Sequence record: PZ166176.1
Direction: 5' to 3' (one strand)
Origin: a phage
DNA: 64,000 nt
Below the pieces are notes generated by a model. It ran no database searches. It was given only the letters and a program-made list of their open reading frames with translations, and was not told the DNA's origin. How positions within the stretch are numbered: the stretch's first letter is position 1; each line of letters begins with the position of its first letter. This document shows, piece by piece, positions 1,547 through 35,271 of this stretch. The position numbers and the translations under genes were made by a program.

Positions 1547-1590
1547 TCTAGCCTCCTAAACGCGTCTCTGATGCACTTTTTATATATAAG

Positions 1591-1619
1591 ATGATAAATC
1601 ACCTTACCTAGTAAGTAAA
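1591..1619 (-). promoter_or_regulatory. sigma70-like promoter for the leftward genes (-35 TTTACT, 17-nt spacer, -10 TATCAT on the minus strand)
   Basis: Hexamers read directly on the reverse complement, correctly spaced and positioned upstream of the 1546 start. Confidence 0.4.
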
Positions 1620-1801
1620 CTTGCTCTACGAGCCTCTTATGAAGCTTATGTTATAGGCTATACTATTGCTACCTGTTTAAGCAAGGTTTTTGCACACAGA
1701 AAATAATTTTTAATAAAACTCTTGACTTTTGTGTTCGAAGTATGCTACCCTAGAAATCTATTAACGAGCGCAGCGAGTTAAGGTTTTAGGTTGTTGATGT
1801 A

Positions 1802-1833
1802 GTACTCTGTACTCAAGTACTGTACTCCGTACT
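1802..1833. repeat. array of five GTACT repeats within 32 bp
   Basis: GTACT at 1802, 1809, 1817, 1822 and 1829; further GTAC sites at 1888, 1907, 1911, 1989 and 1994 flank AT-rich tracts. Confidence 0.8.
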
Positions 1834-1835
1834 AG

Positions 1836-1882
1836 ATTAATAATTATTAAATATTAATAATAAATAATTATTAGATCTAACA
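1836..1882. repeat. AT-rich tract with internal palindromes (ttaataattattaa)
   Basis: Nearly pure A/T for about 45 bp between the GTAC clusters; a second AT-rich tract lies at 1921-1965 and a perfect 14-bp palindrome TGATCTATAGATCA at 1968-1981. Confidence 0.8.
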
Positions 1883-1966
1883 AACAGGTACAGTGTATCA
1901 GAACTGGTACGTACAGATCAACTTCTATCAATTAAAAATAAAATAATAAATTATTATAAATAATAC

Positions 1967-1995
1967 TTGATCTATAGATCAGTATGAAGTACAGT
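1967..1995 (+). promoter_or_regulatory. sigma70-like promoter for the rightward genes (-35 TTGATC, 17-nt spacer, -10 TACAGT), overlapping the palindrome TGATCTATAGATCA
   Basis: Hexamers and spacing read directly; AT-rich UP-like region upstream; the palindrome in the spacer looks like an operator. Confidence 0.4.
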
Positions 1996-2027
1996 ACGGA
2001 ACATCTTAACAAGAATGGAGGTGTGCA

Positions 2028-2796: not shown

Positions 2797-3005
2797 ACGT
2801 TCATCAAGTGTGGTAACAGGGTCGTTGACTTTTGTTAAGAGGGGCTTGCACTGCGGTAGTGTTAGAGACTACTTCTTCAGAGGTTAGCTACCAAAGAGGA
2901 AAAGGAATAGTCTCGGCTCAAGAACTTTTACGCTGAAAGTTGGGCTTGGTCTTAGAGAATGTAGCGGTTCTCTACAATCGTCAGCGTCTCTGTTACCACA
3001 TTTAT

Positions 3006-3080
3006 GGCCCTGTAGCTCAATGGGAGAGCTGTCGGCTCATAACCGATAGGTAGCTGGATCGAAACCAGCCAGGGCCACCA
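3006..3080 (+). tRNA. tRNA with anticodon CAT (Met, or Ile2 if lysidine-modified), CCA encoded
   Basis: Cloverleaf folded by hand: acceptor GGCCCTG/CAGGGCC, D-stem GCTC/GAGC, anticodon loop CTCATAA, T-stem GCTGG/CCAGC, discriminator A, CCA. Confidence 0.8.
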
Positions 3081-3082
3081 AC

Positions 3083-3157
3083 GTCTTTATGGTGTAATGG
3101 ATAGCACAGGAGTCTTCTAAACTCTTAGTCAAGGTTCGATTCCTTGTAAAGACACCA
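3083..3157 (+). tRNA. tRNA-Arg (anticodon TCT), CCA encoded
   Basis: Acceptor GTCTTTA/TAAAGAC, anticodon stem GGAGT/ACTCT with loop CTTCTAA, T-stem CAAGG/CCTTG with loop TTCGATT, discriminator A, CCA. Confidence 0.8.
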
Positions 3158-3353
3158 GAACATTTTAACATGAATTAGCTCAAGTGATTTGAACCCACTA
3201 CTGATCATGGTGGCAGAGAATGAGGCAAGTATGTCAGACATTATAAACAAAGGCCACGGTTATATTAGAAGACATAAATGCTCGAAGAGCACCGTTCGTT
3301 GAGAACGGGGGTTGGTGGAGTCACCATTCATGGTAAAATGTTTTAAAAAACTA

Positions 3354-3383
3354 TTGACAACTAACATTATTTTATGTTAGATT
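3354..3383 (+). promoter_or_regulatory. promoter-like site (-35 TTGACA, 18-nt spacer, -10 TAGATT) with palindrome TAACAT...ATGTTA
   Basis: Same actattgacaa motif as at 2767 and 4103; lies just upstream of tRNA-Ser. Confidence 0.4.
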
Positions 3384-3391
3384 ATAAGTAT

Positions 3392-3482
3392 GGAAGGGCA
3401 AATCGACGTGGCGACGAAAACGGTCTTGAAAACCGCCGAGCTTGAAAGAGCCTTGGGAGTTCGACTCTCCCTCCTTCCGCCA
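3392..3482 (+). tRNA. tRNA-Ser (anticodon TGA), long variable arm, CCA encoded
   Basis: Acceptor GGAAGGG/TCCTTCC, anticodon loop CTTGAAA, long variable arm, T-stem GGGAG/CTCCC with loop TTCGACT, discriminator G, CCA; the D-arm is irregular. Confidence 0.7.
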
Positions 3483-3486
3483 GATT

Positions 3487-3572
3487 GGTAGATTGGTGAA
3501 ATGGTAGCCACGACAGTTTGCTAAACTGTAGTCGGAAACGGCGTGTAGGTTCGAGTCCTACATCTACCGCCA
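3487..3572 (+). tRNA. tRNA-Ser (anticodon GCT), long variable arm, CCA encoded
   Basis: Acceptor GGTAGAT/ATCTACC, D-stem GTGA/CCAC (read as in the analysis), anticodon stem ACAGT/ACTGT with loop TTGCTAA, T-stem GTAGG/CCTAC, discriminator G, CCA. Confidence 0.8.
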
Positions 3573-3578
3573 AATTAA

Positions 3579-3664
3579 GATGAGTTGGCTGAATGGTTTA
3601 AGCGGCGGACTGTTAATCCGTGTTCGAAAGAACGATATAGGTTCAAATCCTATACTCATCGCCA
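3579..3664 (+). tRNA. atypical tRNA: serine-like body (long variable arm, discriminator G) with anticodon GTT (Asn codons), CCA encoded
   Basis: Acceptor GATGAGT/ACTCATC (perfect), anticodon stem GCGGA/TCCGT with loop CTGTTAA, variable arm hairpin GTTC-GAAA-GAAC, T-stem ATAGG/CCTAT with loop TTCAAAT, discriminator G, CCA. Isotype cannot be settled by eye. Confidence 0.55.
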
Positions 3665-3671
3665 GAATTAT

Positions 3672-3750
3672 GGACTTGTAGAGTTAAGGTAAACCCCCAG
3701 TCGCCAAGAGGCTTCTGGAATTGCAGGTATCGAATCCTGCCGAGTCCCAG
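3672..3750 (+). pseudogene. degenerate tRNA-like element (no CCA, 8-nt T-loop, no clean anticodon arm)
   Basis: Acceptor GGACTTG/CGAGTCC and T-stem GCAGG/CCTGC are recognisable, but the D and anticodon arms do not fold canonically and CCA is absent. Confidence 0.3.
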
Positions 3751-3754
3751 CTTT

Positions 3755-3829
3755 GCTCCTATAGTATAATGGCTATTACAACGGTTTTGTAATCCGTGGA
3801 TCTCTGTTCGATTCAGAGTGGGAGCACCA
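3755..3829 (+). tRNA. tRNA-Thr (anticodon TGT), CCA encoded
   Basis: Acceptor GCTCCTA/TGGGAGC, anticodon loop TTTGTAA with a U-U loop-closing mismatch, T-stem CTCTG/CAGAG with loop TTCGATT, discriminator A, CCA. Confidence 0.75.
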
Positions 3830-4102
3830 ACACAACATTAAGAGCACTGTGATTGATCGTCGTATCCTGTGCACAAGGTCTGCTCGAAAGACAGTGTTCT
3901 TAGTATTGTGTTGATCACAAAAAGAGTTACCTGAAACTTGACCGGAGTAGGGTTGGATGGGGCAAAAGAAGAAGCGGCTCTCCCATCGACAGCAACGAAG
4001 AATAATATTTGACTTTGGTTTTGTATTATTTTAAGTTAGCTTACCGAACGTAGGGCTAGTCACCCAATGGGATACTCGTCACTGTCCCGCTCAATAAAAC
4101 TA

Positions 4103-4132
4103 TTGACAACCAATAGTAAAATGTAGTATAGT
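4103..4132 (+). promoter_or_regulatory. sigma70-like promoter (-35 TTGACA, 18-nt spacer, -10 TATAGT) with inverted repeat ACTATTG...CAATAGT
   Basis: Good match in both hexamers; lies upstream of tRNA-Gly and restarts transcription inside the tRNA region. Confidence 0.55.
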
Positions 4133-4143
4133 AAAGATGTAGG

Positions 4144-4217
4144 GCGTTCTTGGTGTAGCGGTAGCATTCCGTCCTTCCAAGTCGGCGGCACGAGTTCGAT
4201 CCTCGTAGAACGCTCCA
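4144..4217 (+). tRNA. tRNA-Gly (anticodon TCC), CCA encoded
   Basis: Acceptor GCGTTCT/AGAACGC (perfect), anticodon loop CTTCCAA, T-stem ACGAG/CTCGT with loop TTCGATC, discriminator T, CCA. Confidence 0.75.
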
Positions 4218-4315
4218 AATTATTTAATAAAGGGTTGCCAGAAAACTTTCTCTTTTACTCATGGTTTTCTCCTTCTCTCACACCTCTTCTGGTTGCCCTT
4301 CATTAAATGATTTAT

Positions 4316-4391
4316 TGGTTTGTAGTGTAGTCCGGTAGCACACGACACTTTGACTGTCGTAGGTTTGGTTCAAATCCAGACAGACCAGCCA
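4316..4391 (+). tRNA. tRNA-Gln (anticodon TTG), CCA encoded
   Basis: Acceptor TGGTTTG/CAGACCA, D-stem GTGT/ACAC region, anticodon stem CGACA/TGTCG with loop CTTTGAC, T-stem TTTGG/CCAGA with loop TTCAAAT, discriminator G, CCA. Confidence 0.75.
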
Positions 4392-4396
4392 TATAA

Positions 4397-4473
4397 CGGA
4401 ATTTAGCTCAGTTTGGTAGAGCATACGCTTTGGGAGCGTAGGGTCGCAGGTTCGAATCCTGCAATTCCGACCA
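4397..4473 (+). tRNA. tRNA-Pro (anticodon TGG), CCA encoded
   Basis: Acceptor CGGAATT/AATTCCG (perfect), anticodon stem TACGC/GCGTA with loop TTTGGGA, T-stem GCAGG/CCTGC with loop TTCGAAT, discriminator A, CCA. Confidence 0.85.
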
Positions 4474-4479
4474 ATCAAA

Positions 4480-4553
4480 TGTTTCGTAGTTCAATGGTAG
4501 AACCCACGACTGATAATCGTGAGACACAAGTTCGATTCTTGTCGAAACAACCA
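4480..4553 (+). tRNA. tRNA-Ile (anticodon GAT), CCA encoded
   Basis: Acceptor TGTTTCG/CGAAACA, D-stem GTTC/GAAC, anticodon stem CACGA/TCGTG with loop CTGATAA, T-stem ACAAG/CTTGT with loop TTCGATT, discriminator A, CCA. Confidence 0.85.
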
Positions 4554-4555
4554 GT

Positions 4556-4625
4556 TTCCCGTTAGACTTACAGGATAAGAGTTCCACAGCTTATTGTGAT
4601 GTTGGTTCGAATCCAGCACGGGATA
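4556..4625 (+). pseudogene. degenerate tRNA-like element (no CCA, irregular anticodon arm)
   Basis: T-arm GTTGG-TTCGAAT-CCAGC and an acceptor pairing with a 1:72 mismatch are present, but the anticodon region gives only a 4-bp stem with a 6-nt loop and ACA replaces CCA. Confidence 0.3.
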
Positions 4626-4631
4626 CATAAT

Positions 4632-4710
4632 AGCGGGATAGAGGAGTCTGGTCGTCCTCGCCAGTTTCATATGCTGGAGATCATCGGTTCAAATCCGATT
4701 CCCGCCTCCA
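4632..4710 (+). tRNA. tRNA with anticodon CAT and an A1:C72 mismatch (second Met/Ile2-type tRNA), CCA encoded
   Basis: Acceptor AGCGGGA/TCCCGCC, D-stem GAGG/CCTC with an 11-nt loop, anticodon stem CCAGT/GCTGG with loop TTCATAT, T-stem ATCGG/CCGAT with loop TTCAAAT, discriminator T, CCA. Confidence 0.65.
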
Positions 4711-4825
4711 AATATCGCTTGCCAGCGGTATCTTTGAAGACCTTGCCTGGTTCCTTCTAAGATGGAGGGGTGCGACTCCTTAACGCACAATTATAATAAA
4801 GCATTTCAAATTAACAGTATTTATT

Positions 4826-4848
4826 AGCCTCCTTATTGGAGGCTTTTT
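4826..4848 (+). terminator. rho-independent terminator after the tRNA cluster
   Basis: Hairpin AGCCTCC-TTATT-GGAGGCT followed by TTTT. Confidence 0.75.
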
Positions 4849-4867
4849 GCTATCTATTGAATAAAAC

Positions 4868-8389: not shown

Positions 8390-9955
8390 GTGTCAACAGG
8401 AAAAAGAACGTACACTAAAAAGTCAGAATACTGGGACAAAGGTGCTGCAAATAAAGCTGCTCTCTCTCCAACAAAAGAGGCAGAGAAAGAGAAAACGTTA
8501 CTCCTGTCACCTGAAATAGGAACGATCGGATTAAACTCAATCAAAGCATTTACGAATTTCATGCAACCTTATGAGACTCGTTTCCCAGAATGTATTCGCA
8601 CTTTTAAAGAGATGGGTGAAGACCCTGATGTAGCTACTGCTCTTGACGCTACATATATCTTTGTAGATAGAGCATTCTTTGATTTCAAGATAAAATACAA
8701 TGTAAACTCGGCAAAGTCAAGAAAAGCTGCTAAGTTTATTGATTACATGTTGCGCAATATGCAAGCCCCTCTACGTCAATATGTTAGATCACTTTTGACA
8801 TATAAGCAATATGGTTTTGCATTCGCAGAGAAAGTTTATGAGTTGGATGAAGATCCTAAAAGTCCTTACTTTGGGTATTGGCGATTAACCAAACTGGCTT
8901 TTAGACCACAAGACACTCTTCACATGGCTCAACCTTTTACATATTCGGCAGACGGACGTTCTATTCTATCTGTTAACCAGAATATCACCAATACGATGTT
9001 AGCTCCAGGTAATACAACTTTAGAAACGGGTATTAAAGAAATCCCTTTCAGTAAAGTTTTATTTGTTGGTAGCAACATTACAGAGAATAATCCACTAGGA
9101 GTTAGTCCGCTTTTAGCTGTATATCGTAGCTGGCGTGAAAAATCTCTTATTCAGGAATTTGAGGTTATTGGGGTATCTAAAGATTTAGGCGGTATGCCAG
9201 TTCTTAAGGTTCCAAGTGACATTCTAAACAGGGCATCTTTAGATCCTGCTGGGGATGAAGCACAATCTCTTCGAGTTCTCCAAGCCAACATCGCTAACCT
9301 ACACTCTGGTGAACAAGCCTACATGGTATTGCCTTCAGACGTTTATGAAGGCACAGTGATGCGTCAATACGATCTTGTATTCCAAGGTGTTGATGGCACG
9401 GGTAAACAGTTTGACACTCAAGCACTAATCAAACAACGCAAGCTAGATATTTATAACCGCTTTGGTGCGGGTGTGTTGATTATGGGTGATGGTGATGCAG
9501 GAAGTTTTGCGCTTTCTGACAACAAACAAACACTATTGTCTCATTTTATTGAGCGAGATGTAGATATTGTTGTAGAAGCTATAAACTCTCAACTGATCCC
9601 TCAAACACTACGACTAAACAATATCTTCCTTTCTGATGAAGATATGCCTAAGTTTGTCAGTGGTGAAATGGGTGATCCTGATATTGAAGTAAATGCTAAA
9701 GCTATTCAGCAGTTGGTAGCCTCTGGTGCAATACCTTTAACCCCAGAAGTTATTAACGAGTTCCTTGAAAAAATTGGTTTTGAATATCGCATCCCTGATG
9801 ATATTGTTGCCAATAAAGAGAAATTCTTTGAATTCATGGATAACTATATGCCTGACAAAACTTCACGATCAGGAGATGGTTTAGCTACAGCGGGAACTGG
9901 AACGTCTGATACTGTTTCTGCTCTAGATCCTTCAGCACAAAACCTGTCGAATTAA
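8390..9955 (+). CDS. portal protein (521 aa)
   Basis: GTG start after GGAGG; size and position directly after the large terminase; called by synteny. Confidence 0.7.
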   Translation: MSTGKRTYTKKSEYWDKGAANKAALSPTKEAEKEKTLLLSPEIGTIGLNSIKAFTNFMQPYETRFPECIRTFKEMGEDPDVATALDATYIFVDRAFFDFKIKYNVNSAKSRKAAKFIDYMLRNMQAPLRQYVRSLLTYKQYGFAFAEKVYELDEDPKSPYFGYWRLTKLAFRPQDTLHMAQPFTYSADGRSILSVNQNITNTMLAPGNTTLETGIKEIPFSKVLFVGSNITENNPLGVSPLLAVYRSWREKSLIQEFEVIGVSKDLGGMPVLKVPSDILNRASLDPAGDEAQSLRVLQANIANLHSGEQAYMVLPSDVYEGTVMRQYDLVFQGVDGTGKQFDTQALIKQRKLDIYNRFGAGVLIMGDGDAGSFALSDNKQTLLSHFIERDVDIVVEAINSQLIPQTLRLNNIFLSDEDMPKFVSGEMGDPDIEVNAKAIQQLVASGAIPLTPEVINEFLEKIGFEYRIPDDIVANKEKFFEFMDNYMPDKTSRSGDGLATAGTGTSDTVSALDPSAQNLSN

Positions 9956-22656: not shown

Positions 22657-23390
22657 TGGATGCATTGAATTTTGTCACAGCAATGCGTGGCTTAATGACA
22701 GAACAATTAGCAGAAGTCCATACAGCCTTGCCAGTCCGTGTGACTGGTGTTAATTATGGTGCTAAAACTGTCACTTTAGAATCTATTGTTAAAAACACAC
22801 GATCTAGTGAAGATGAAATAGATTATCCAACTTTCGAAGATGTTCCTTTCATGGTTAATGGTGGTGGGACAGGAAGAATCTCATTCCCTATTAAAGCTGG
22901 CGATTTAGGAACTGTTATATTTTCTGAAAGAGATCCTTCTAATGCACTGCAAACTAGTGGGGAAACCTCTTCATCATCCACTTTTATGCAGCCTTGTGGA
23001 TTATACCCTATTTGTTTTATTCCCAAAATAGCTACAGGAACAGATTCAACAGAAGCTGTAGATTCTGAAAAGGTAGTTATTTCTAATAACAAAAACACGT
23101 ACGCTTCTTTCGACCCTACAGGTAATATTTCAATATGGAATAGTCAAGGGATGAAAATAGATATTACTACCTCCGGTATTACTATTACAGATGGCACAGG
23201 AACTTTGGATCTAAAAGGTGGTAATTTAACTTTCAAAGGCGGCGTGGCAGATATCAATGGTCTTAAAATAGACCAGAACGGTTTGATGACAGATGGTAAT
23301 GGCATCGGATTCCATACTCACACGCACACGGTTCGTAACATTCAGAGCGGTAACTCAAGTGCCGAGTCCTTAAAACCAACAGGAGCCTAA
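22656..23390 (+). CDS. putative baseplate central spike protein (244 aa)
   Basis: Position immediately upstream of the baseplate wedge-like gene; start overlaps the previous stop. Confidence 0.35.
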   Translation: MDALNFVTAMRGLMTEQLAEVHTALPVRVTGVNYGAKTVTLESIVKNTRSSEDEIDYPTFEDVPFMVNGGGTGRISFPIKAGDLGTVIFSERDPSNALQTSGETSSSSTFMQPCGLYPICFIPKIATGTDSTEAVDSEKVVISNNKNTYASFDPTGNISIWNSQGMKIDITTSGITITDGTGTLDLKGGNLTFKGGVADINGLKIDQNGLMTDGNGIGFHTHTHTVRNIQSGNSSAESLKPTGA

Positions 23391-34209: not shown

Positions 34210-35271
34210 ATGGCGAAGCCAATATATTATCCTGACTGGGCTACACAAACTGTAACGCTCCCAGGAACTTTAAACACAAACAAAATTAGACCTAAAGAAA
34301 CCATCCGCACAGTTGGTATGGATTATGGTCAAATCATGACTTGCGAAGAAATGAACTGGATTCTTAATAATATCGGTTTATGGATTCGCTATTTGGTGGA
34401 TGACTTTCTTCCAACTTTGCCTGATACTTACTTGCCTTTAGTGGGAACTAAGATTACAATGGCTGGTGACGCTACTGGTGAGGCTACTTGGAATGGTAAC
34501 AAAGAAGTTACTTTATCTATCCAGGTTCAAGATAACAGTCATAATCACTTGTCGGCAAACATTACAGATGCCACTAGTTCAACAGTAACACCAAACGTGC
34601 TGGTAAAACGTGATGCGGGTGGTGCTATTTATGGTGGCGATGTTTATGTTAACGGTACTTCCACAACAGATCCTGCAACACTGTTCTTCAAAAACTTTGC
34701 AGGACAAACAAATGGTGAGATTTCTGCCGAGTATCAAAGCGGAGGTCAGCTTTATATTTATCGTAGAAATCCTAGCACAGGTAGTGTATCGGCAGGTGTT
34801 CGTTTATATGATGCAGGTTATGTTCTAATAGATAATCCAAGATCAAACAGTGGACAAGATACTTCTAACGGAAATGCTTTAGTTCGTTTAGATTATCTGA
34901 ACTCTCGTTTGACTTCCCTTCAGAACACATTGCAGACGAATATTAACACTGTTCAAAATAACTTGAATAATGTTAACAGCAACCTTTCTTCCCGTATAAA
35001 CAATGTAGAAAGTAATCATCAAAGTCAGATTACAAATAACTACAATTATGCTAACGGAACCTTTGTAAGAGATATTCGTTATACTAGCCAAGGTGTGTAT
35101 TATCCACCAGGGAACGAGGTTTCTTGGACTTATATCTGTTCTTCTGGTTATGTTCTTTCTGGTATTATCGTACAGGAAACAGGACGTAGTTCTGCGGATA
35201 ACATCGGTGGGGTTTATTTCAAACGCCTCCAGCGCAACGTTAACGGAAACTGGTACGATATCGGAGGCTAG
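34210..35271 (+). CDS. tail fibre protein (353 aa)
   Basis: Asn/Ser/Thr/Gln-rich repetitive C-terminal region; followed by a chaperone-sized gene. Confidence 0.5.
   Translation: MAKPIYYPDWATQTVTLPGTLNTNKIRPKETIRTVGMDYGQIMTCEEMNWILNNIGLWIRYLVDDFLPTLPDTYLPLVGTKITMAGDATGEATWNGNKEVTLSIQVQDNSHNHLSANITDATSSTVTPNVLVKRDAGGAIYGGDVYVNGTSTTDPATLFFKNFAGQTNGEISAEYQSGGQLYIYRRNPSTGSVSAGVRLYDAGYVLIDNPRSNSGQDTSNGNALVRLDYLNSRLTSLQNTLQTNINTVQNNLNNVNSNLSSRINNVESNHQSQITNNYNYANGTFVRDIRYTSQGVYYPPGNEVSWTYICSSGYVLSGIIVQETGRSSADNIGGVYFKRLQRNVNGNWYDIGG

Follow-up and report, generated by a model that had tools for sequence, protein, structure and literature searches.

A probable divergent transcription control region in a phapecoctavirus, with a recurrent promoter–hairpin module and a lineage-specific GTAC cluster

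The interval at positions 1547–2027 of a 64,000-nucleotide stretch of phage sequence record PZ166176.1 (the window, whose numbering is used throughout) lies between a block of leftward genes and a block of rightward genes. We interpret it, with a probability of roughly 0.6, as a divergent early transcription control region with UP elements, a class of promoter that is followed by a conserved hairpin (P1), and a lineage-specific layer of GTAC sites placed over P1 and a second rightward promoter, P2. Sequence matches assign the window to Phapecoctavirus (Stephanstirmvirinae; phAPEC8-like Escherichia coli myoviruses of ~150 kb). Positions 1400–2300 are matched by 72 phage records, headed by Mt1B1_P17 and ECO340P2 at 99.6% identity, and 63 of the 72 are at least 95% identical across the region. 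Conservation among records that are at least 95% identical says little at that distance; the informative comparisons are with phiWec181/188, PsgM04F, an IMG/VR contig, Citrobacter phage Tr1, phi92 (a different genus) and a Klebsiella phage. Genome-wide statistics were computed on Mt1B1_P17 (151 kb; 99.6% identical to the window in this region). No similarity to the region was found in E. coli chromosomes or plasmids. The features of the interval and its borders are listed here from left to right.

1223–1546, − strand: leftward gene of 107 amino acids, the left border of the interval.
1547–2027, no strand assigned: the divergent intergenic interval (481 bp), non-coding; the homologous interval is also annotated as non-coding in relatives.
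1591–1619, − strand: PL, a sigma70-like promoter predicted by promoter scan (TTTACT, 17 nt, TATCAT).
1688–1696, + strand: a single DnaA-box-like 9-mer, TTTTGCACA (15 occurrences genome-wide against ~18 on a rough composition-based expectation).
1696–1751, + strand: predicted promoter P1, with an A/T-rich upstream stretch, TTGACT (1722–1727), an 18-nt spacer and TACCCT (1746–1751).
1761–1781, + strand: conserved hairpin, with outer stem TTAAC/GTTAA and core CGAGC-GCA-GCGAG (1765–1777).
1801–1835, + strand: GTACT array of five units at spacings of 7, 8, 5 and 7; two units are full AGTACT palindromes.
1836–1873, no strand assigned: A/T tract 1, the least stable duplex of the genome, internally palindromic and with tandem period 7/17.
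1871–1882, + strand: TTAGATCTAACA motif, which includes a GATC (Dam) site and is common to several clades.
1888–1914, no strand assigned: three GTAC sites between the A/T tracts (GGTACAG; GGTACGTACAG).
1921–1966, + strand: A/T tract 2, directly adjoining the P2 −35, with the position and composition of an UP element.
1967–1995, + strand: predicted promoter P2, TTGATC (1967–1972), 17 nt, TACAGT (1990–1995), with an ATG 33 nt downstream of the −10.
1968–1981, no strand assigned: perfect 14-bp palindrome TGATCTATAGATCA, spanning the P2 −35 and spacer and holding two GATC sites.
1988–1997, − strand: two GTACT units, AGTACAGTAC, the exact reverse complement of 1817–1826, covering the P2 −10.
2028–2213, + strand: rightward gene of 61 amino acids, the right border of the interval.

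Predicted sigma70-type promoters leave the interval in both directions. Downstream of PL are a short hairpin in the 5′ untranslated region (1562–1574) and the AGGAGG ribosome-binding site of the leftward gene; PL is nearly invariant in 12 close relatives, and its GATGATAAATCACC core is recognisable in phiWec188 and Tr1. P1, which has TG at 1743–1744 (an extended −10), is conserved in phiWec188, Tr1, phi92 and one Klebsiella phage. The positional equivalents of P2 read TTGACT-N17/18-TAGAGT in phiWec188 and phi92, with TATAGT as the −10 in Tr1, and usually carry a GATC in the spacer. In phiWec188, Tr1 and phi92 the first ATG follows P2 at a distance of 25–35 nt and P1 precedes P2 by ~200 nt, and this order and position are kept while the leftward flanking protein drops to 33–56% identity. 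PL, P1 and P2 all match the TTGAC(A/T)-N17/18-TAnnnT promoters that precede tRNA genes. The 22 nt upstream of the −35 are 91% A/T at P1 and 95% at P2, compared with 59–82% at five other promoters of the window, and an equivalent A/T tract upstream of P2 is present in every clade compared. Relatives that lack the GTACT array share an ordered set consisting of P1, CGAGCG-N(1-2)-AGCGAG, the TTAGATCTAACA motif, an A/T tract and P2. They also keep an extended form of the motif, TTAGATCTAACA(G/A)AC (1871–1885 in the window), and both TTAGATCT and CTAACA are common to at least four of five clades.

An earlier note on this DNA had described the interval as a divergent control region, either an early switch or a replication origin, and had put its emphasis on the GTACT array and the palindrome. 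The control-region half of that description holds, because P1 and P2 keep their positions while the flanking proteins are only ~42% identical, and the sigma70-type promoters do point both ways; the emphasis on array and palindrome does not hold. An origin, the other half, is possible, with evidence on both sides that is given below. Calling both flanking blocks early was partly right. The leftward block comprises, in the Mt1B1_P17 annotation, small open reading frames (ORFs) and genes for an anti-restriction nuclease, a ligase, an exonuclease and ribonucleotide reductase. The rightward block is not purely early: three small ORFs are followed by ten tRNA genes (3006–4710) and, according to the same annotation, by spanin, terminase, portal and the structural module. 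The interval, at 97.1–97.6 kb of the 151.2 kb of Mt1B1_P17, is one of three divergent orientation switches, the others being at ~12.6 kb and ~20.2 kb.

We propose that host sigma70 RNA polymerase would read this region from three start points. PL would drive the leftward small ORFs and the ligase, exonuclease and ribonucleotide reductase genes. From the tandem pair P1 and P2, transcription would pass through the three rightward small ORFs and the tRNA cluster and later reach the terminase and structural genes. The A/T stretch that precedes P1, and likewise A/T tract 2, may act as UP elements, which are known at rrnB P1 and at early promoters of T5 and T4. The arrangement resembles the divergent sigma70 early promoter regions of virulent coliphages in its TTGAC-type −35 elements, 17–18-nt spacers and TAnnnT −10 elements, in the A/T tracts directly upstream of the −35, and in its back-to-back placement between opposed gene blocks. 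Unlike those regions, it has a conserved hairpin downstream of P1 and a P2 overlaid by GTAC and GATC sites, and its promoters are predicted ones.

P1 and the hairpin behind it form a module that recurs in the genome. The hairpin would fall at approximately +5 to +27 of the predicted P1 transcript, and the 13-nt element within it, CGAGCG-N(1-2)-AGCGAG, follows the P1 −10 by 14–17 nt. The core would pair as C:G, tandem G.A/A.G, G:C and C:G around a GNA loop, and contains the mini-hairpin formula GCGNAGC. Across 15 distinct module sequences 12 nt are invariant, and the loops are GCA, GAA, GAUA and GAAA. In the outer stem 79% of cells pair, as against 32–43% when the partner is slid by 1–3 columns; the covariation score is 0.348, compared with 0.177 ± 0.037 in shuffles, none of which (0/500) reaches 0.348. 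Pair 16–35 is UA, CG, UG or GU in all 15 sequences and pair 18–33 is CG, AU or UA in 12 of them, and RNAalifold independently recovers the inner helix. This covariation makes a good, not a conclusive, case for the hairpin, because the 15 sequences are related to one another.

A covariance model built from the alignment finds one copy in the window and three in the Mt1B1_P17 genome (E ≤ 1), and no Rfam covariance model matches within 1547–2027 at E ≤ 5. P1 together with the 13-mer stands at 22,983 (+), 135,136 (+) and 97,392 (−, the region studied here) of Mt1B1_P17, with the variant GAGCGATAGCGAG at the two other copies. Those two copies, each TTGACT-N18-TACCCT followed by CGAGCGATAGCGAG, occupy 22,960–23,135 and a site at ~135.1 kb (35,113–35,250 of the Mt1B1_P17 piece L020); the 135.1-kb copy points against the surrounding genes, antisense to a 69-amino-acid membrane-like ORF, and a nested hairpin follows it. 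Contigs of Justusliebigvirus and of Klebsiella phages hold two or three copies of the module, and two unrelated-looking viral contigs hold one each. A metagenome scan with TACCCT-N(10-22)-GAGCGMAGCGAG proved too permissive: only 21 matches, counted over all loci searched and including the viral scan and the GenBank relatives, also had a TTGAC −35, and the rest were treated as chance. The bare GCGNAGC core was rejected as a genome-wide signal, as it occurs at chance frequency in Mt1B1_P17; only the extended element is special.

We regard the hairpin as an evolutionarily constrained cis-element, and the P1–hairpin module as a candidate new cis-regulatory motif outside Rfam. P1 would then belong to a three-copy promoter family in which the transcripts, or the displaced non-template strand, start with the hairpin CGAGC-G(N1-2)A-GCGAG. 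Such a hairpin would probably be the recognition site for a regulator of three transcription units.

The same hairpin could instead work purely as RNA. It would then be a nut/put-like or stabilising element on three early transcripts, acting in processive antitermination or protecting the 5′ end, and the long P1 leader, with the array in it, would fold back on P2 and the ribosome-binding-site region and so tune expression of the first rightward genes. We consider this account rather doubtful. It agrees with the location of the hairpin at approximately +5 to +27 of three transcription units per genome and with the covariation of its stem, and the rightward unit must cross the tRNA genes and a terminator-like hairpin (4826–4844) before the late genes. 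The 287-nt P1 leader also folds at −61.4 kcal/mol, compared with −48.0 ± 4.6 kcal/mol for shuffled sequences (z = −2.95), with the array positions pairing with 1985–1997, but much of this z-score stems from self-complementary GTAC and A/T palindromes. A small conserved hairpin a few tens of nucleotides after several early promoters of long operons is what lambda nut (boxA and boxB) and HK022 put would lead one to expect. Unlike those systems, the leader has no CGCTCTTA-like boxA between the P1 start and the hairpin, and a Pfam scan of the neighbouring proteins identified no N, Q or RfaH-like antitermination factor. The loops GCA, GAA and GAUA are also unlike the GNRA-type loops typical of boxB, with its GNRA-like pentaloop, and the element has no Rfam relative.

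Properties of the hairpin as DNA bear on a second alternative. The GCGNAGC/GCGNNAGC mini-hairpin is reported at the complementary-strand priming sites of G4, St-1 and alpha3, at RSF1010 ssiA and at N4 early promoters (PMC13037366), and the formula GCG-N(1-2)-AGC taken from that review describes all 15 distinct module sequences. Nearest-neighbour folding of the hairpin gives only −2.1 kcal/mol; standard parameters, according to the review, cannot capture the mini-hairpin motif (PMC13037366). All variants of the element (GCGCAGC, GCGAAGC, GCGATAGC and GCGAAAGC) fit the mini-hairpin DNA of Hirao, with the core inside a longer stem. The element differs from that DNA in its setting, a double-stranded DNA myovirus, where it follows a sigma70-type promoter and is flanked by invariant tandem GA steps. 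It differs further in that no N4-type polymerase is annotated in Mt1B1_P17 and that the bare core is not enriched genome-wide.

The second alternative is a transcription-activated replication origin of the T7 primary-origin, T4 oriF-oriG or ColE1 type. Transcription from P1 into A/T tract 1 would form an R-loop, and its RNA would prime synthesis to the right. On the displaced non-template strand the GCGNAGC mini-hairpin would fold as a priming or helicase-loading signal, and the GTAC and GATC sites would modulate firing. The T7 primary origin consists of promoters 1.1A/1.1B and an A/T-rich region, and T4 oriF and oriG of a middle promoter and a downstream unwinding element. The likeness lies in a promoter that reads into an exceptionally unstable A/T tract. 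The two nearly pure A/T tracts reported earlier are indeed 94% (1836–1882) and 93% (1921–1965) A/T; they rank first and second for A/T among 45-bp windows in Mt1B1_P17 and by nearest-neighbour energy are the two least stable 50-bp duplexes of its genome, 40–130 bp downstream of P1. P1, whose −10 extends to 1751, is directed into the putative unwinding element, A/T tract 1, which begins at 1836. The hairpin-forming signal is on the strand that an R-loop would displace, and it fits GCGNAGC/GCGNNAGC in all its natural variants (GCA, GAA, GATA and GAAA loops). With GAUA among them, which does not obey GNRA, these loops are better described by GNA/GNNA, the rule for DNA, than by GNRA, the rule for RNA. 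Genes for a family-A DNA polymerase and a helicase are present in the phage (>40 kb from the region), and the region sits where gene orientation diverges and where cumulative GC skew has a local minimum.

Several observations count against such an origin, and we judge it unlikely. The module is triplicated, and its other two copies have no comparable A/T tract. A/T tract 1 is absent from phiWec188, Tr1 and phi92 and the array is missing in sister clades, so the feature that resembles a DNA unwinding element is lineage-specific and not conserved. A second, larger A/T-rich non-coding region lies at 13.3–13.6 kb, and the bare GCGNAGC core, as said, is at chance frequency genome-wide. The GC-skew check proposed by the earlier note was run, and the local cumulative minimum at the region is accompanied by a global minimum at another divergent point, at ~20 kb in Mt1B1_P17; GC skew was set aside as an origin indicator, being confounded with gene orientation, since it tracks the coding strand. 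An origin of the oriC type has DnaA boxes, A/T-rich 13-mers and a GATC cluster. What the region shares with E. coli oriC is its A/T-rich tract, a number of GATC sites and a single TTWTNCACA match; it differs in that this lone DnaA box is at chance frequency and in that other parts of the window have GATC at the same density (4 in 110 bp). DnaA boxes and oriC-like 13-mers were accordingly dropped as being at chance level or absent; no GATCTnTTnTTTT 13-mers in the right orientation were found in the region. Nor are there iterons in the sense of phased or conserved repeats, the units being 5 nt long at 5–8-nt spacing and absent in sister clades.

The origin and the RNA-level accounts differ mainly in what the hairpin and leader do. 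A broader and quite speculative form of the former would make the module an undescribed initiation signal of the Stephanstirmvirinae. Where it stands beside the most easily melted DNA of the genome, as here, it would be a transcription-activated origin, with the hairpin recruiting priming or helicase machinery and the GTAC cluster sensitising firing, or P2, to a GTAC-specific modification or binding protein. We think this improbable.

The two A/T tracts resemble one another beyond composition: 1839–1894 (A/T tract 1 with GATCTA...GTACAGT) aligns with 1942–1995 (A/T tract 2 with the P2 core) at 72% identity over 39 nt and a spacing of 103. This likeness suggests that the DNA upstream of P2 was duplicated locally long ago.

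Returning to the proposed transcription control region, its most conspicuous component is the cluster of GTAC sites. The earlier counts were exact: five GTACT repeats lie within 1802–1833 on the + strand (starts at 1802, 1809, 1817, 1822 and 1829), and five more GTAC sites start at 1888, 1907, 1911, 1989 and 1994. Chance does not come close to explaining this cluster. Of all 16 4-bp palindromes, GTAC is the most strongly depleted in the window, with 65 sites observed and ~200 expected (observed/expected 0.33), and GTACT occurs 40 times in the whole window against an expected 114 ± 13, so that ten GTAC sites within 196 bp (1802–1997) have a Poisson P of ~4e-15. In the whole genome of Mt1B1_P17 the richest 200-bp window holds eight GTAC sites and every other window at most three. 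Tandem Repeats Finder makes no call at the array because the unit spacing (7, 8, 5, 7) is irregular.

All 12 aligned sequences of the phAPEC8 clade have the array, dw-ec with only three units; in two of them, BI-EHEC and KKP3954, most GTAC sites of the region read ATAC/GTAT. Conservation of the array in related phages, which the earlier note had proposed as a check, fails beyond this clade: the array is absent from phiWec181/188, PsgM04F, Citrobacter phage Tr1 and phi92, which keep the remaining architecture. The note had itself held that an array not conserved in close relatives would refute its reading, and at sister-clade depth the array is indeed not conserved. We conclude from these alignments that the array is a lineage-specific insertion into a conserved framework. 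Relatives without the array also have no GTAC at their own P2 −10, and therefore both groups of GTAC sites appear to have arisen together.

In the proposed control region the GTACT array and the other GTAC sites would have been added in the phAPEC8 clade, within the P1 leader and on the P2 −10. They are most likely operators for a small phage protein that would shut off P2 and roadblock P1. A site on a core promoter with an auxiliary array ~170 bp upstream, across A/T-rich DNA, has the look of a looping operator system, and such a protein could loop the A/T-rich DNA between the sites. Ribbon-helix-helix operator arrays, exemplified by the heptads of the omega protein of pSM19035 and the met-boxes of MetJ, offer a parallel in their short motif at 5–8-bp spacing, in direct and inverted orientation, with one set covering a −10. 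The GTAC sites differ from them in their irregular spacing (7, 8, 5, 7), their restriction to one clade, and the lack of a cognate protein among those scanned with Pfam.

The array may also have no function of its own. It would then be a recent product of slippage or duplication in a low-complexity, indel-prone spacer, its GTAC content incidental. This is a serious possibility, which we nevertheless do not favour. The array is found nowhere outside the phAPEC8 clade and its copy number varies (three units in dw-ec). Tandem duplications occur nearby in relatives: anhysbys repeats AAGGTTTT and BI-EHEC has an expanded A/T tract 2. A/T tract 1 with GATCTA..GTACAGT itself resembles a degenerate duplicate of A/T tract 2 with P2. 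Two features count against this account: the cluster is the only one in a genome threefold depleted for GTAC, and it consists of three separate groups of sites. One of these groups is an exact inverted 10-mer on the P2 −10, an outcome that simple slippage does not give.

Several points weigh against our interpretation of the interval as a transcription control region with a GTAC operator layer. P1 and P2 each match the consensus at 8 of 12 positions, and the promoter scan listed neither of them. The UP-element idea does not account for why A/T tract 1, a tract with no recognisable promoter next to it, is so extremely unstable. The GTACT spacing shows no helical phasing, and dw-ec manages with three units. 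There are 143 GTAC sites per genome, so counter-selection at any single site is weak, and therefore persistence of the cluster is no proof of function. No DNA-binding neighbour was identified: Pfam returned no family for the seven small proteins flanking the region, and a Zn-ribbon-like protein of 83 amino acids was considered as a clade-specific DNA-binding neighbour and rejected, as it is also present in the clade without the array. Our literature searches found no transcript mapping, transcriptome or protein-binding data for any phapecoctavirus, and no mapped promoters, temporal switches or origins for phapecoctaviruses or phi92-like phages.

The other conspicuous element, the perfect palindrome TGATCTATAGATCA, does lie where the earlier note placed it and does overlap the rightward promoter P2; its supposed significance is not borne out. 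The window contains four perfect 14-bp palindromes, against 4.45 ± 2.1 in Markov simulations. The left arm of TGATCTATAGATCA is the invariant P2 −35, and four of the 12 close relatives (phAPEC8, EP57, KKP3954 and nieznany) carry mutations in the right arm; therefore the symmetry itself is not constrained. We rejected the palindrome as an operator, as its frequency is at chance level and it is not conserved. Substitution density per sub-segment among the close relatives was also tried, and its variation was too small to discriminate.

The GTAC changes in BI-EHEC and KKP 3954 are part of a wider anomaly. In these two genomes 44% and 63% of the GTAC sites of the window read ATAC or GTAT, compared with 4–19% for eleven control 4-mers, and the pattern is genome-wide and not confined to 1547–2027 (for example GTAC at 8410, 13734, 34175 and 37665). 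Almost all of the changes are C-to-T or G-to-A, and about half are nonsynonymous, against ~17% of other substitutions and none of seven in Mt1B1_P17. On these grounds the GTAC losses were not used as evidence on the array, and both records were set aside as unreliable at GTAC. BI-EHEC was assembled from nanopore reads only (PMC8686590); the sequencing platform of KKP 3954 was not found. The simplest reading is a motif-specific basecalling error at modified GTAC; very strong selection against GTAC is another possible reading, and either way GTAC is under special pressure in these phages. A phage-encoded GTAC methyltransferase was rejected as the source, as the three genes of Mt1B1_P17 annotated as 'DNA methyltransferase' have no Pfam support for that function; Pfam identifies one of them as an XkdF-type serine protease and returns no family for the other two. 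Their positions in pieces of Mt1B1_P17 are given here.

L019, 38,391–38,870: annotated 'DNA methyltransferase', the XkdF-type gene.
L020, 21,846–22,355: annotated 'DNA methyltransferase'.
L020, 28,772–29,455: annotated 'DNA methyltransferase'.

We also asked where the ends of the genome lie. That the interval holds the physical ends, in the form of a terminal repeat, or a packaging recognition site is very hard to credit. The GenBank record of nieznany both begins and stops within the region, but these ends, overlapping with a deletion inside, have the appearance of an assembly artefact. For the related phage BME3 a direct terminal repeat of 342 bp has been reported (PMC12210895), which would speak for such ends here, but that repeat has no nucleotide similarity to the window. 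In Mt1B1_P17, 99.6% identical to the window in this region, the two ends of the record (1–328 and 150,875–151,202) form an exact direct terminal repeat of 328 bp, ~54 kb away from the region at 97 kb. A terminal repeat or pac site at the interval was thus ruled out by the position of the Mt1B1_P17 repeat, the nieznany artefact and the unrelated BME3 repeat. Records starting ~3 kb to the right (536P1 and TSP7_1) were likewise rejected as marking genome ends, as their first positions merely fall close to or on the gene that comes next after the tRNA cluster: TSP7_1 starts at the ATG of that gene and 536P1 29 bp upstream of it, and no terminal repeat was found in 536P1.

Three side observations concern these records. 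The terminal repeat of Mt1B1_P17 is bordered by ~1.2 kb and 0.6 kb of non-coding DNA that include some of the A/T-richest segments of the genome. In the BME3 record (PP239276) the first 342 bp are present three times and the first 788 bp twice near the right end, which conflicts with the annotated coordinates of the direct terminal repeat and is probably a problem of record building. In vB_Ec-G1 (PQ433349) identity to the window is 98.5% in the intergenic region and just 77.6% in the adjacent leftward protein, a contrast suggestive of recombination with a boundary where the control region ends.

Further structured elements were observed elsewhere in the window. A segment of ~200 nt just upstream of tRNA-Met (2806–3003, + strand) is closed by a 16-bp stem and preceded by a sigma70-like promoter at 2767–2796. 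Its predicted RNA minimum free energy is −76.8 kcal/mol, against −53.1 ± 4.2 kcal/mol for shuffled sequences (z = −5.6), and it has no Rfam match; it is a candidate structured non-coding RNA. At 3392–3478 (+ strand) there is a tRNA-like sequence missed by ARAGORN, for which the best Rfam model is tRNA-Sec, at 37.4 bits and below the gathering score of 47; the Mt1B1_P17 annotation has a pseudo-tRNA near the equivalent position. A weak match to the RyhB model at 4797–4851 (+ strand; 29 bits against a gathering score of 55) includes the terminator-like hairpin at 4826–4844 and probably reflects that terminator only.

As a whole, the region is an ordinary kind of element, and it is the promoter–hairpin module and the GTAC anomaly that merit follow-up. 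The comparisons tell apart what is conspicuous (the GTACT array and the palindrome, which are lineage-specific or at chance level) from what is constrained (the module, present three times per genome and across genera). That a tetranucleotide depleted threefold in the genome, and seemingly misread throughout the BI-EHEC and KKP 3954 records, is concentrated at one control region hints at GTAC-specific modification or restriction pressure, and as a practical warning some deposited genomes may carry motif-specific errors at GTAC. Isolation of phapecoctaviruses and phi92-like phages for therapy and biocontrol is widespread, and in these phages the module offers a small, concrete target for experiments on early gene control or replication initiation.

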